This document shows, piece by piece, positions 3,555 to 21,742 of a DNA stretch of 21,862 nt. The number at the start of each line of letters is the position of its first letter. The stretch's first letter is position 1. A program made the position numbers and the translations under genes. Source of the DNA: Rozella allomycis CSF55 (taxonomy: Eukaryota); contig KE561161.1 of NCBI GenBank assembly GCA_000442015.1, positions 62,001-83,862 of the forward strand, in the 5' to 3' direction. The notes under the pieces are model-generated. The model was not told the DNA's origin. It saw only the letters and a list, made by a program, of their open reading frames with translations, and ran no database searches.

Positions 3555-4414
3555 TTATTCTTTGGTCTCTTTGTTTTCTGATGACTTTGTTTGAATTGAC
3601 GGGAGGGGATTTTTGTCTTCAGAAATTTCAGGATAATATTCTCTTATTGGTTGACTCTTTTGAGCCAAGGGGGTAACATTTGGCCTTGTTGGAGTGTAGT
3701 GAGAATTATTGGAATACATTCCTTGATAATTGAAATTGGAAGGCGTCGATGGCTGCGCAGAGCGTTGATGATAAGAATAATGCAATGGATGAGACTGTTG
3801 ATGAGGTGATTGTTGGAAAGATGAGCTATTTAGAGGAATTTGAGACGTTGCTTGAATTGGAGATTGATAGTAAGGACGAGATACAACTGGCCTTGGGGTA
3901 TTTGAATATTGTGGAAGTCTTAGTGGCTGCCTAACTTGAGCTTGGCTAAGCGATTGGGTTGACGGCTGAGTAGCGGATGAAATGCCCCCTGCAGTATTTG
4001 GGGCATGATAAGAATCAAATGGCCGTCCAAGGCTTTGTGGGGCTCTCTGGTTGGTTAAAAGAGACAATTTAAAGAAATTTGGATTAATATCGATTGGAGC
4101 AGGAGTTGCATGGCTATTTTTACTAAACAAGAAAATTACCTTCCCTGGCCTTGCCTTAAATAAGCGATTCTTTGGCGCGCAATTTCGTGTGTAGAATCTT
4201 GATCAAGAGCCTTTTGATAAGCGTCTAAAGCATCGTTGACTTGATTGTTGCAAGATTCATATAAAACACCCAAGTTAAACCAAACTTCAAAGATAAACGG
4301 AGAAATGTGGATGGCCCTGCTGTAGGCGTCCAACGAGTCACGAAACTGGCCAATCTTGTGGTAAAGAATCCCAATGCTGCACCAGTACGCTGGATTTCTA
4401 CTGTCACGATAAAC
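3555..4414 (-). CDS. CYC8: Cyc8/Ssn6 TPR co-repressor, 3' part only (last TPRs plus Q/P/S-rich tail); 5' part lost at the N at 4416
   Basis: VYRDSRNPAYWCSIGILYHKIGQFRDSLDAYSRAIHISPFIFEVWFNLGVLYESCNNQVNDALDAY matches the final TPRs of Ssn6/Cyc8. 26-nt GT-AG intron 4114-4139 links to ORF 3555..4130. Confidence 0.88.
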
Positions 4415-4415
4415 A

Positions 4416-4416
4416 N
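4416..4416. other. Single N, probable assembly or scaffold junction
   Basis: Cyc8 homology stops exactly at the N and an in-frame stop (4430-4432) lies just beyond it. Confidence 0.8.
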
Positions 4417-4463
4417 TAATTTTAAAACCCTAATTCCGACCAATCATCATAGAATATCTCCCC

Positions 4464-7611: not shown

Positions 7612-8395
7612 TTAGACGAATTTGCTTCTCACATCCAAAATCTTATCAAAATTTACTATTATGCATACTTGAAAGTATTCTTGTTCCCTCATCGAGTACA
7701 TAAAGTCCGAAGGTATCTTGTCTTCTTTTATCATCTTTTGTGAATCTATGCCTTCAATATTTAATGTCTCGCTTTGAAGATAGCATTCAACGTGATCAAC
7801 GCTAATACATAAACGTGTTATTTGCAACTTTCTATCGAAATTCATGGTACTCCTACATCTATATGAAATCAAACAATCTTCCAATTTATATTTACCTTTT
7901 CTCGCTTTGTGATTCGTGTAATGTCTTTCTCGAATGTAGATATTGCGTACGATTCTTCATCTTGATCAGATTCTATAAGATTCACTTTAATATTTTTCAG
8001 GGTCCAGTCGTATTTATTGGTTTTTGATCTACATGCAAAAAACTCATAAAAAAAGTAAGGAATCTTTGGGCTTTCAATCTCAATGTCATCTTTTCCTCAC
8101 AGTTAAATGAACTTACAGTTATGTATTTTATCATTAGTAGTTATTCTTAGTTTGGCATTTTTACAAAAGTATGTGTTAAACATATTGTGCCAGTGGTAAA
8201 GATCTGGGAACTTTGATATCTAATCGTATGCAATCTTACCTTTGTGCAGTCAAATGTTTCACAGCGGTATTTATATATTTGGTTCACTACTAGAAACGCA
8301 TTTCTTTCCCCTAAATGGTTAAAAGCAGTTTTTGCTAAAGTCATGTGAATAAATTTCACAGATAAGTTCGGCAGGGGTGGGCCATGGTTTGCCAT
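7612..8395 (-). CDS. LIM-domain-binding (Ldb1/Adn1/Mfg1-like) domain protein, 5 exons
   Basis: Introns 8211-8239, 8090-8116, 7870-7895 (GT-TG) and 7642-7668 give one frame: LYHWHNMFNTYFCKNAKLRI..YDIEIESPKIPYFFYEFF..MNFDRKLQITRLCISVDHVECYL..KIPSDFM, resembling LIM_bind family blocks (recognised by eye). Confidence 0.55.
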
Positions 8396-8680
8396 TAGAT
8401 CCAATGAGAGGTGCCAAGTAAAGAACCAAATACCAATTATAAAATTATACTTTACTCTCTATCCAGATTCCAGATTGAAACAGTGACGAAATTAACCACA
8501 AGCCATTGTCAAAGTGTATATGACAAGTGACAAAGTATGCAAAAATGTAAAATTGCATTAAACTGGATAAAATCAAAAAAAGGAGTGTCTGCTAATTGAT
8601 TCTCAAATAAATCGATCAATTCACGTTGATTGTGGATGTCATGTGACATTGATCATTTGTAAATTTCCTGGTCCTGATTC

Positions 8681-9171
8681 ATGACGCTGAAAAATGGATT
8701 TTTGCTGGGTATAGTGATTAAAATTATCTCTCAAAAGTAAGAACAGTCGATTTTATCCACGAGAGAAAGTATGTAGCTAGAATTATATTCAGAAACACCA
8801 GTGATCATTCAAACTATTTGCTGAACATTTTTACCCAGAACGCTTTGGCGCTGCATCAAGATTTGGAAAATTATATTCTGGGAAAGTTGGTTTTACTTGA
8901 AAAATATCTGTTTAGGAATATTTATTTGTATTGGAAACTAAAGCATTTCCCTTGTTCAACGGAGAGACAAAAGATTCCATGGGCCACTCATCTAAATTTT
9001 GATACCAGTAATATTGAAATCTGTGGGTCTTCCAAATTGCGCATAGATATTACAGATTCCGTATCCGGGAGTCAGGGTCAAACTGAGCTGCGGAATTTTC
9101 GACTTACTAATTTTGAAAAGGATTTAGAAAATGCATTGAACTTGATGGTTCTTTGTTTGAAAAATAAATAA
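8681..9171 (+). CDS. Hypothetical protein
   Basis: ATG 8681 plus 29-nt GT-AG intron 8709-8737 joins in frame to the open frame containing ORF 8818..9171. No family recognised. Confidence 0.4.
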
Positions 9172-11666: not shown

Positions 11667-13185
11667 TTATTTGCCGAACAGCTTGAGGCCTATTTTAGTA
11701 CTGGTAGAATTTTTATGATCGTTTGAGGTTAATCGAAGCGACTCAAGTTTCTTCCTTCGTTCTTCCAGCTCCATCTTTTGATTCTCCAAATGCTGTTTAA
11801 CTTCCTTGTGTTTAGTAAACAATTCTTCCTCCGTTTTCTTCAATTTTTGTTCTTTTTCCTTGACCTTATCTTCAAGCATTTGGCGTAATTCAGACTCTAA
11901 CTCTTTCAATTTGAGTTCATGATTTGCTGGCCCAACCGATGTATGGTAATGGGATCTTTGATTTTTTCAGTCGTGAAATATTACACATGGTCATTATCAG
12001 ATGAGTTTAATAATTTTTGTGCTCGAAAATTCTCATATAAAACAGTATTGGTGTATTCCTTTAAGTCTTCCATATTTGAACTATCTACACTAAAGAGACA
12101 AAGTACCGAATTAATAATTGTCTTAGTTTAGCAAAATCGTTGTGTTCCTCATTGTCAACTTTTCAAAGTTGACCGAAACCTTTACCTTCGATGACACCCC
12201 ATGGATATTTTCTTCCCCGAACTTTTTTACCGTTAATTTCAAATTCCTGTGTGCTGCCAACTACGGCAAAGGGCATTTTCTCCTTTGATAAAACAAACTC
12301 GGAAGCTTTACAATGAGTTCATGATTTTCTGACATTGTCTCTTCATCATCGTATTGATCGGCAAGTGGTTGATAAATTTGAATGCCGTGATTAGCAATGT
12401 CTTCTTTAATCAATATTTAGAATCCGCAATTTATTACCCGGGCTTTGAATTGAATGATTTCTTCTTCCGTCATTGTGTCAGCCTTTGCAATAACTGGAAT
12501 CAAGTTCGCCCTCTGGTGAAGTCGCTTCATAAACTCAACATCTACAGCGCGTAGACTGAAAATATTCATTTTAATATTTACCTATGGCCAGTTGCGGGAA
12601 TAAAATAAAGCAAGGCATGAACTCTCGTGTCAATAATGTCTTTACGGTTAACCCGGGATTCCTGTTCCAAATATGAGTTGAAACGAGATTCAATACATTC
12701 TAGAATCGGCTTCCAGCTAACTTTGTGGTTAAAAATATATGTACCAATCTTGGTTGTCAATGAAATCGCCAAAGCCAGGCGTGTCGATTATAGTGAGATG
12801 CAATTGAACACCATTTTCAGATATGTCTATTAAAATGGAAAATAAAGAATACTTCCTTGAACTGATTGTATTTCTACAGTTTTAGGGGTTTCATGACTAG
12901 GCTCTTTTTCTTCTTTTGCTGGGTAGATATATGAATTAAACAGAGTATTGACCATAGTTGACTTTCCTAAACCGGATTCCCCTGATAAACATCTCCGAAT
13001 ATCTCTACCAACAACCATCATGGTAAAATTGAAGCCTTTTTTAACAGACTTCCTATGAATTTGATTAGGTAAGTTGGAAAATCCGACATACCCATTCAAA
13101 TGGCGCTTAGTACACTTTTATTGCAGCTATTATTTTTTACCTTCTCGAACTTTGTATCTTCTATTTTATGCTCTACTTCTATCAT
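11667..13185 (-). CDS. CDC3: Septin, Cdc3/SEPT7 group (11 exons)
   Basis: [51 protein letters not shown], and a C-terminal coiled coil [16 protein letters not shown]. Introns 13115-13140, 12982-13008, 12827-12852, 12717-12744, 12556-12581, 12411-12437 (GT-TG), 12283-12311, 12159-12185, 12081-12106, 11956-11984. Confidence 0.92.
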
Positions 13186-13621: not shown

Positions 13622-15124
<1,503 letters not shown>

Positions 15125-18513: not shown

Positions 18514-20286
18514 ATGAAGTTTAATTTCGAAGATATAAGATCCGATGCCGGTTATGTTTTCTTGAAACCTCTGACAATGGGGAAATTGCCATTTGTATTG
18601 TTTATTGACGTTGATTACTTTCCGATACGCTATATTAGTATGAGTGTATTTTTCATAACACAGCTAAAAATGAATTGAATAACTTTTTTGAAGGCATCAA
18701 AGCGCTTTCGAAAGATCGCGAGTTATTTGACTTTATTATGACTTCAGAATATGAAATGTTAAGCTTAAATCAGATGTGGGATGCCTTCCACTGTAGGAAA
18801 ATCAAAGGGGAAGTTACATCTATATTTGAGAGTAATTATACATAAATCTACTAGTCAGAAAGAATAAATGAGTGTTGTAAGTGGGTAGAAAATCTGATGG
18901 TTATTGTAATCTCGGACAGGATTGTCATCAAGGACCTGCACAAAGAAATTAGCATTATATGGATTTGCTCTTCGGCAAATGAAAATCCAATTGGCGATTT
19001 TAAGATAGAAACATCAATGTTTCTAAGAAATTGTGGGTTAGGCAGGCTTATTCCTGATATCAAATACAACGAGCGATTTCAAAAAATATTAAAGCTGATA
19101 CTTATGGAAAAGTTATTGGATAAATTACACGACAGAAAATGGAACAAAGTCGTTAATTTTATCAGTAAATTTATTGGCCTATGTATTTAAGGTCAAAACT
19201 TTAAGGCTTTCTTAAAAGTGAATCCTTTAGACTGGCTAACTGATTCAATATCTTCAGAATTTTTAATTACTAGGGATGGTAAAATTGAACGGGGGCCGAA
19301 AATCCCCACGGAAATAACAAAGGTCTACCAAATATTGTGTGCAGCATTTTTTGATATTGGAATAACCGTTACAAAACTAGTTGAGCTTATAGAAGCGAAT
19401 TTAAATGTCTTTAAAGGTGTTGGTTTAAAGGATAAAGATGACATCGTCAACTTTCTGATTGAATGTCGATTAGTTAAGGACAGGAATGGGGTTTTAAATA
19501 GTTCCATTTTTCATGGGACAATAAAGGACCCAATTGCGAAAAGAATAGATGACAGTGATCTTGAATTAGTATTGTTGAGGTTTAGGAAAGTTCTCATAAG
19601 ACACATGGAGTTTCATATTGATGCTACAATAAGAGTAACAAGTGTAAATCTAATTTACACTTAGGTAGAAAAATTATTTGGCATTTTGTCAAATCTAATT
19701 GATGATGGTATCCTTCTTAATTCGCATGCATAATACAGGCATAATACCTGCTTATTCTAGAAATCTGTTTGTTGAGACATTGGAGCAAAAGGGATTTATC
19801 AAAAGTAGAGGTGGAAAACTAATTTCTTTGACTGAGTCCTTTTTGTCTAAGTATGAAGGTAATTATCTTTATCGCCAATAATATGTGGTGCCTAGCATGG
19901 CAAACACTACTTCACAAAATTCATTAGATGGCGAAGAACAAAAGGCTGGTGAAAATGTTGCAAAAAAGAAAACCAATTTCAAATCGATTAAAGAAAATCA
20001 AGTTGCTCCAAAAACAAAAGCAGAATCTAATTGTAACGTCGTGGTGAAAGATGTGATTGATGATGTTCCCGTCAAGAATATTCTGGATGATGTGTCCATT
20101 AAGAAGATTCTCGCGACATTGAAGTTTATGAAATTTTTTCATAAGAAGACAAGTTTTACATTTGATGAAGTCAAGAAACGTTATCTAAAAATGTTTAGTG
20201 GTTCCGAAAACGACGCCAATTCCAAATTTGACATGGCAGCTAGGCAAAAGATAATAACTGTAGTAGATAATAAAATAATCGTTTAA
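18514..20286 (+). CDS. Multi-exon hypothetical protein, possibly degenerate NYN-like domain plus winged-helix repeats
   Basis: Introns 18638-18663, 18832-18858, 19165-19191, 19635-19664, 19708-19738 and 19859-19885 (GT-TG; alternatively GT-AG 19851-19895) join ORFs 18897, 19218, 19699 and 19885 into one frame. The domain call is tentative. Confidence 0.65.
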
Positions 20287-21145: not shown

Positions 21146-21742
21146 TTATTGATGGGTTACCGTAAACAAGTCAATGTGGGAGTTCTTTGTCAGATCTGCA
21201 TCAGAAGAAAAATATTTCATAATCTTAAAGTCGTCATTAATATCAATAGGTGTGAATTCTTTCGAATTTCTAATATTTGAGTTGGCTCCTCTGGCTAGAA
21301 GGATTTTCACAACTTCGCCTGCACCATAGAGGGTAGCCAAATGCAATGCCTATATTTAGATTCCATTTATCGTACCTATGTTTTCGACATCAATATTTTA
21401 CTGTATTATTTCCACCAAAAGTAATGTCTAAATCGTCAGTGAATGATTTATCAATGATTTCTTTGGCTAGGTCATCCTGTCCCCATATAATTGCAGCGTG
21501 TAGGCCTGTGACTGAGCCTATGTACGCCCCAAGAAATTTATAAGCATCAAGTTCTATTTCGCCTTCATATTTGAAATCATTATGTCTGTATTTTATTTTC
21601 GCTAAATCTGGATGCTCAGTCAACATCCCCCTTACAATATCAGTCTGACCATTCTTAATTGCTTTAAAGTAATTCTTTGATTGAAATAGGGTTAAATTAC
21701 CTCAATTATCGAGAACGGTAACGATTTGGCGGGAGCTGACAT
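21146..21742 (-). CDS. Ankyrin-repeat protein
   Basis: FKAIKNGQTDIVRGML, TGLHAAIIWGQDDLAKEII, NT|ALHLATLYGAGEVVKILLARGAN, FTPID. Introns 21675-21700 and 21350-21401 (two abutting 26-nt units). Confidence 0.85.

Follow-up and report, generated by a model that had tools for sequence, protein, structure and literature searches.

A candidate 26-nt GT-TG intron in a LIM_bind-like gene and evidence for a GT-TG intron class in Rozella allomycis

A LIM_bind-like gene and its paralogue

The window, that is, the whole stretch of 21,862 nucleotides analysed here, comes from the genome of Rozella allomycis CSF55, a compact, intron-rich eukaryote genome. The minus strand of the window carries a gene with a candidate intron that begins with GT and ends with TG. 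The parts of the gene are listed below in the direction of transcription, with posteriors from the gene model and with L001 denoting the locus of a paralogue.

8240-8308, minus: upstream exon part, set by alignment to L001; the start of the gene is not fixed
8211-8239, minus: GT-AG intron, 29 nt, phase 0, posterior 0.61, codon-for-codon at the first intron of L001
8117-8210, minus: exon with a weak LIM_bind match (PF01803 positions 19-43, 14.1 bits, E 0.034)
8090-8116, minus: GT-AG intron, 27 nt, phase 1, posterior 0.99, absent from the paralogue
7896-8089, minus: exon 5' of the junction (ending at 7951 under the rival join), 37% identity over 35 aa to L001, E 1e-8
7925-7950, minus: rival canonical GT-AG intron, 26 nt, phase 2, posterior 0.25, uniting the same two frames as the candidate
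7870-7895, minus: candidate GT-TG intron, 26 nt, phase 0, with a GT start and a TG end, preceded by a Lys codon
7669-7869, minus: exon 3' of the junction (starting at 7924 under the rival join), open frame
7642-7668, minus: in-frame GT-AG intron, 27 nt, posterior 0.61
7612-7641, minus: last exon with the stop codon, open frame, aligning to the last exon of L001

The two canonical introns upstream of the junction, on which a sequence-only reading of this DNA had relied to fix the frame, were recovered by the gene model, while the intron at 7668-7642 had been overlooked in that reading. Its removal lifted the alignment score against the paralogue from 35 to 46 and restored a conserved C-terminal segment; BLASTP of the unspliced downstream frames against the paralogue gave no alignment until it was taken out. 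The two exons downstream of the junction (7669-7869 and 7612-7641) then aligned to the last exon of L001 with a shuffle p of 0.0025. Both halves of the gene align in order to one paralogue, which indicates a single gene that is intact past the junction under either join. Separate genes, one of the outcomes that the sequence-only reading had named as fatal to its proposal, are therefore unlikely, and frameshifting does not have to be invoked either. As DNA, the gene is single-copy in the genome.

The assignment of the gene to the LIM_bind type, and its continuation past the junction, were borne out by a weak profile match and by the alignment to L001. The window exon and the paralogue weakly match the N-terminal part of the domain, with 18.7 bits for locus L001 and 23.8 bits (E 3.8e-5) for its public model P0001; the window exon and P0001 both lie below the family cut-off of 24.2 bits, and no profile match spans the junction. 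No Pfam match was obtained with the long frames of the window gene, and no LIM_bind match in the single exons on either side of the junction. Searches for homologues of the window gene or its paralogue found none, a search among representative sequences yielded only the paralogue's own model and five repeats-like matches, and a sequence search for solved structural relatives returned none. The Atlas neighbours of the paralogue exon were SnoaL/NTF2-like (0.89-0.91), in keeping with the NTF2-like fold described for the LDB/Chip dimerisation domain in the consulted part of PMC6800368; the neighbour of the window exon (0.78) was unrelated. The gene thus appears to be a diverged LIM_bind-like gene of the LDB/SEUSS type, and is treated here as such and not as a tested PF01803 member. 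Further upstream, a 49-nt GT-AG intron with an inner TAG at 25 nt and a weak donor can be seen by eye at 8311-8359 (minus strand); it would link an upstream frame resembling the paralogue and was not called by the gene model.

In the paralogue L001, an intron of 29 nt in phase 0 follows a Lys codon; it lies 0-2 codons away from the candidate junction, depending on the register of the alignment, which is uncertain by 2 codons at this point. This intron is forced, because its flanking frames do not overlap. No L001 intron lies within 10 codons of the rival join at 7950-7925. The first intron occupies exactly the same position in both genes. It is the only one of the three other introns of the window gene that is common to L001, a point against the TG reading; across the sample, 67 of 228 testable junctions coincided with an intron of some paralogue, and 114 of 134 shared pairs did so at offset 0. 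The public model P0001 shares the donor of L001:1855-1883 and runs to a later, out-of-frame acceptor, thereby losing the C-terminal part that the 29-nt GAG acceptor keeps.

Intron rules of the Rozella genome

Introns were called with a custom-built forward-backward gene model in a sample that comprised, besides the window, 124 loci collected by family searches and 40 further stretches, each 10 kb long. After removal of overlaps the sample amounted to 706 kb, or ~6% of the 11.86 Mb genome (1059 contigs), from which genome-wide figures are extrapolated. In a scan that used no model, GT-AG pairs peaked sharply at 26-29 nt and were at background level at 25 nt, and ~93% of the introns called by the gene model were 26-31 nt long. 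The first AG at 26 nt or more from the donor was the acceptor in 1151 of 1157 introns. Position 23, counted from the donor, is an A in 293 of the 321 canonical 26-nt introns and in 63-71% of the 27-30-nt introns, and we infer that this A is the branch point. An A somewhere at positions 20-24 was found in 307 of these 321 introns; the other 14 lack one, among them the well-fixed septin intron of the window at 12581-12556, which resembles the candidate. Branch-point motifs were not enriched in introns (CTAAC occurred 5 times vs 9.0 expected), and the tiny introns showed no pyrimidine consensus. In the 706 kb, AAG made up ~28% and GAG 3% of canonical acceptors, and GC donors were below 1%.

The candidate intron and a canonical rival

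The GT...TG stretch at 7895-7870 is present at the coordinates first proposed: it is 26 nt long and links the minus-strand frame 8096-7872 to the frame 7956-7612 without a shift. The AGs near it are dead ends, as the sequence-only reading had held, since from the same donor those at 18, 37, 43 and 46 nt lead to a stop after 2, 1, 6 and 5 codons, respectively, and no AG lies at 26-31 nt. Few in-frame ends are available here, and that the TG is among them is unremarkable by itself. The donor exceeds chance expectation: ranked against 1151 canonical donors, its score is within the top 1.1%, none of 75,887 phase-0 positions in long open reading frames matches it, and donors of its type occur 46-60 times as often among true donors as among GTs in coding sequence. 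This donor, GTAAAT, is the commonest donor hexamer among ordinary introns of the genome and departs from the extended U12 consensus, which speaks against a U12-type intron. Of the features of the genome's U2-type introns, the candidate has the donor consensus and lacks the 3' AG and the A at position 23. A tandem TG-AG acceptor of the human kind was rejected as well, the adjoining AGs at 18 and 37 nt being unproductive, although low-level use of an AG beside the TG may occur.

The TG intron had been described as needed to keep the gene open. It is not, because the canonical intron at 7950-7925 joins the same frames, which overlap by ~85 nt, and the resulting protein is equally long; what has to be decided is the join in use. 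Altogether 19 GT/GC-AG joins of 15-129 nt reach the stop at 7612, among them this one and an in-frame 68-nt GT-AG intron from donor 7895. The gene contains two 26-nt candidate introns 55 nt apart. The one sequencing run compared with the locus yielded only pieces from other organisms, with no coverage of 7770-8783.

Sequence signals do not favour the TG end. In the gene model, which is blind to homology, the posterior of the candidate was 0.244 vs 0.253 for the rival, and a profile specific to 26-nt introns gave odds of 0.19-0.38 for the TG join. The candidate has a GC content of 18%, vs 36% in the rival, and such an AT-rich body is typical of introns; it has a T at position 23, without the usual A there, and no A at 20-24. 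Taken alone, the splice signals stand between 1:1 and 1:5 against the TG join relative to 7950-7925. The site had also been presented as independent support for the use of TG. With such signals and no A at position 23 it does not provide this, and its credibility is borrowed from stronger examples, such as the septin and thiolase introns that also lie in the window.

A class of GT-TG introns

Apart from the candidate, three GT-TG introns of the window are of note.

12411-12437, minus: septin GT-TG intron, 27 nt, with an in-frame stop inside and AGs at 34 and 37 nt out of frame
13661-13688, plus: thiolase GT-TG intron, 28 nt, posterior 0.99, with no AG at 18-49 nt
19859-19885, plus: GT-TG call, 27 nt, in a gene without a Pfam match, posterior 0.98, from the gene model only

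The septin intron is the best case in the window: at its position three paralogues have an intron ending in AG and a fourth has one ending in TG, a pattern which indicates that the septin TG introns are old introns whose acceptor changed. The exon downstream of the thiolase intron begins the Thiolase_N profile. A second possible thiolase GT-TG intron (14363-14389, plus strand; 27 nt, in frame, no stop) was called with a posterior of 0.64. The call at 4414-4440 (minus strand), in a TPR gene that we take to be Cyc8-like, is unsafe given a weak donor and an N at 4416; it was set aside as evidence yet is counted among the 28 TG calls discussed below. A 26-nt GT-AG intron at 21376-21401 (minus strand) is followed by a stop.

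Across the 706 kb, TG was the only non-AG ending that stood out. Of 1299 confident calls, 25 ended in TG. When all endings were fitted jointly from equal priors, the 1519 expected introns were distributed as 1444.5 AG, 61.0 TG, 4.6 CG, 3.6 GG and 3.5 TT, with about 1 or less for each remaining ending and at most 0.4 for AA, AC and AT. Allowing TG at a prior of 1% improved the fit by 110.6 log units, vs 1.1-27.4 for the 13 other endings covered by this single-ending test, which did not reach TT. A model-free count covered 96 breaks for which no good canonical intron was available: of 13 in-frame slots behind strong donors, 6 ended in TG, where out-of-frame slots predict 0.3. Five of six TG calls still fell at 26-28 nt under a flat length prior.

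Homology points the same way. For seven of the 28 TG calls the sample contained a paralogue to compare with. In six of these seven tests no AG alternative scored as well as the TG join, the six including a Rab gene and two DEAD-box helicase genes in which the junction lies at invariant motifs; an AG alternative was favoured in the seventh. When 27 exon pairs were compared with Pfam, six matched one family on both sides and three were exactly adjacent (two TG and one GG). Two GT-GG calls were L093:2918-2943 (minus strand) and L147:8306-8333 (plus strand), the former joining positions 38 and 39 of the axonemal dynein light chain profile exactly. At L138:7674-7702 (minus strand), in what is presumably an isocitrate dehydrogenase gene, a 29-nt CG call is soon followed by a stop in frame, and a 30-nt GG end fits better by eye. 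A septin gene at L102 (minus strand) contains three TG calls, among them 1027-1054 and 1585-1611.

The idea that TG is used where no AG lies in the length window held well beyond the candidate, as 27 of the 28 TG calls have no AG at 26-31 nt. Because of this, and because the first TG is taken in all 28, TG would act as a fallback acceptor; 16 canonical introns skip a TG to reach an AG. The A at position 23 is present in 20 of the 28 TG calls and an A somewhere at 20-24 in all of them. Matched for distance, TG showed no significant depletion ahead of the AGs that are used, and AGs that lie out of frame a short way downstream were equally rare behind AG and TG ends, which makes that control uninformative.

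On these sequence comparisons, it is very probable that a class of AG-free TG introns exists in the Rozella genome. TG introns likely account for 2-4% of the sampled 26-29-nt introns. The value of 1.9% is the safe floor, because the 4% includes diffuse mass of the kind shown by GA donors, which gathered 32.9 diffuse units without one confident call. Assembly error is unfit as an explanation of the class, because its spectrum would not spare AA, AC, AT and GA.

Which join is used at the candidate site

The proteins predicted from the two joins could not be separated by their similarity to L001. The alignment scores were 129 for the TG join and 131 for the rival with BLOSUM62, and 163 and 166 with BLOSUM45; the end-to-end scores of 129 and 131 far exceeded the shuffle maxima of 69 and 61, and pairwise shuffle tests gave p values of 0.62 and 0.21, respectively. 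Scores and shuffles thus suggest a tie. The TG join becomes the likelier one here because the intron position in the paralogue is counted: if paralogues share roughly 10-30% of their introns and chance coincidence is ~1 in 600 per position, the position of the L001 intron favours the TG join, by rough inference, with a likelihood ratio of 5-100. When the signal odds, the paralogue position and the minor rivals are combined, 7895-7870 is probably a GT-TG intron in use, and it is one of the weaker examples of a well-supported TG class.

The most serious alternative, which we judge unlikely, is that the ordinary GT-AG intron at 7950-7925 joins the gene and that the GT...TG stretch is coding, possibly as a decayed ancestral intron, with the TG class real elsewhere. 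This intron has canonical ends, the modal length and the A at position 23, it is in frame and gives a protein of equal length, its sequence-only likelihood is equal to or better than that of the TG join, and its alignment score is 2-3 points higher. Its signals are nevertheless poor by the standard of the genome, since the donor falls in the 9th percentile, the combined signals in the 3rd and the GC content of 36% in a 4% tail. Decoys like it are common in coding DNA: among 219,510 positions there were 249, compared with 4 that resembled the TG candidate. It is in phase 2 and lies 10-17 codons off the L001 intron, and splicing there would give no reason for the presence of a top-1% donor where the paralogue has its intron.

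It is very improbable that donor 7895 is real and spliced to an AG at 37 or 68 nt, or that the gene is decaying after loss of its acceptor. The 37-nt AG has a good TAG context and receives 0.35 from the homology-blind model, the 68-nt join is in frame, and the strong divergence of the LIM_bind-like gene could suit decay. Both lengths, however, lie at or past background level in the intron length distribution; the 37-nt join would truncate the protein and the 68-nt join would delete 14 residues, the latter form scoring lowest in an anchored alignment (-3 vs 12 and 14). The septin TG intron of the window also skips AGs at 34 and 37 nt. Against decay, the exons 3' of the junction are open and conserved and contain a further intron. 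The 37-nt GT-AG intron had been named beforehand as a finding that would overturn the TG proposal, and with a stop after one codon and conserved exons downstream it can be regarded as unlikely.

Hardly any weight falls on the reading that position 7871 is properly an A, shown as T through an error of the assembly or a strain variant, and that the intron is a plain 26-nt GT-AG: although the assembly does contain Ns (window 4416 and L168) and a 5-nt inversion-like difference from the public Prp18 protein, errors would strike all single-base variants, whereas the confident calls comprise 25 TG, 3 CG, 1 GG and no AA, AC or AT, GA donors gave no confident call of 1288, and two septin paralogues on separate contigs both end the same intron in TG.

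A possible mechanism and the spliceosome

The preferred reading of 7895-7870 as a GT-TG intron would fit the following scheme. An ancestral U2-type intron of normal length would have changed its acceptor from AG to TG and still be spliced. Sequence statistics show a tightly fixed intron length with a floor of 26 nt, a conserved A at position 23 and, as acceptor, the first AG from 26 nt onward; statistics and homology together suggest that, where no AG lies at 26-31 nt, the first TG or rarely a CG or GG is used, the last G always being kept. The spliceosome may thus dock the 3' site by distance and the last G, with the base before it checked loosely, and one candidate cause is the change in the conserved Prp18 loop. 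At the candidate site, the very strong donor would be used with the TG at 26 nt, keeping the domain whole.

Genes for Prp18 and Slu7 are present, as is one whose motifs mark it as U2AF1-like, so that loss of Prp18, Slu7 or U2AF1 was rejected as a cause. The U2 snRNA (139 bits) has an intact branch-pairing sequence and the alpha-finger of Prp8 is nearly identical to the human one, and changes in these were likewise discarded. The Prp18 loop (L165:1670-1740) differs from that of yeast by a one-residue insertion and four core substitutions, in a comparison with only two solved homologues of which the second also has a divergent loop; the link to Prp18 may serve as a lead only. Elsewhere in the Prp18 gene, at L165:1625-1645, two residues differ from the public protein P0007; 5-nt inverted repeats flank a 5-nt loop in the DNA there, which looks inverted in one version relative to the other, through either a strain difference or a local assembly fault. 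A Prp18 exon of the genome is 97% identical to a public protein assigned to Rozella allomycis.

Taken as a whole, the following proposal is offered only tentatively, and we would not favour it over its negation: that distance from the donor sets the 3' site for a wild-type major spliceosome, which routinely joins exons at UG, or rarely at CG or GG, in the absence of any AG in 2-4% of introns including those of essential genes, that the diverged Prp18 loop is the cause, and that 7895-7870 is an extreme member without the A at position 23.

Comparison with known non-canonical introns

The UG ends known so far are rare alternatives beside AG in animals and errors in yeast mutants. According to the parts of the literature consulted, human TG 3' sites, such as those of GNAS and TSPYL2 (PMC4176328), make up ~0.02% and are alternative and AG-dependent (Szafranski et al. 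2007, PMC2374985; PMC4176328). The human TG-AG tandems share with the Rozella introns a GT donor, a TG 3' end and the major spliceosome (PMC2374985). In contrast, the Rozella sites are ~100 times commoner, appear to be the main site by the need of the frame, and in several cases have no AG from 18 to 49 nt.

Closer in spectrum are the BG sites of yeast, which are activated by loss of Prp18 or of its conserved loop, as far as the sections of Roy et al. 2023 (PMC10711555) used here describe them. In both systems UG, CG and GG are used and the last G is kept. AUG and UUG are among the most used BG sites in Prp18-deficient Saccharomyces cerevisiae, and 25 of the 28 Rozella TG calls are AUG or UUG, matching this preference (PMC10711555). 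The yeast sites, however, are mutant errors that compete with a normal AG, whereas Rozella is wild type with Prp18 present and its TG appears to be the only frame-keeping end, unlike the yeast BG sites (PMC10711555).

Paramecium has ~25-nt, AT-rich, U2-type GT-AG introns similar to the tiny introns of Rozella; their ends are reported as canonical, and the word 'non-canonical' is absent from the text (PMC12862383). The GA-AG introns of Oikopleura dioica and Eurytemora affinis are a comparable lineage-specific class, at 3.2%, in which the change is at the donor and not, as in Rozella, at the acceptor (Frey and Pucker 2020, PMC7072748). The same survey puts all minor splice combinations in fungi at 0.257%, and its main text names neither Rozella nor GT-TG. 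The passages seen of PMC8476143 mention the species for intron density only. No published report of a TG intron class in the Rozella lineage was found in a search outside of which lay subscription journals and supplements.

Implications

The 3' AG of introns is treated as nearly invariant. The site at 7895-7870 adds little proof that Rozella departs from this; its value is that of a clean either/or between two 26-nt introns that give proteins of equal length. Gene models that admit AG only would mis-cut the genes with TG introns. If the class is real, some hundreds of short introns, as extrapolated from the 6% of the genome sampled, would need a UG end to be spliced, and Rozella would offer a natural system in which to study the checking of the base that precedes the last G and the role of Prp18 in this step.
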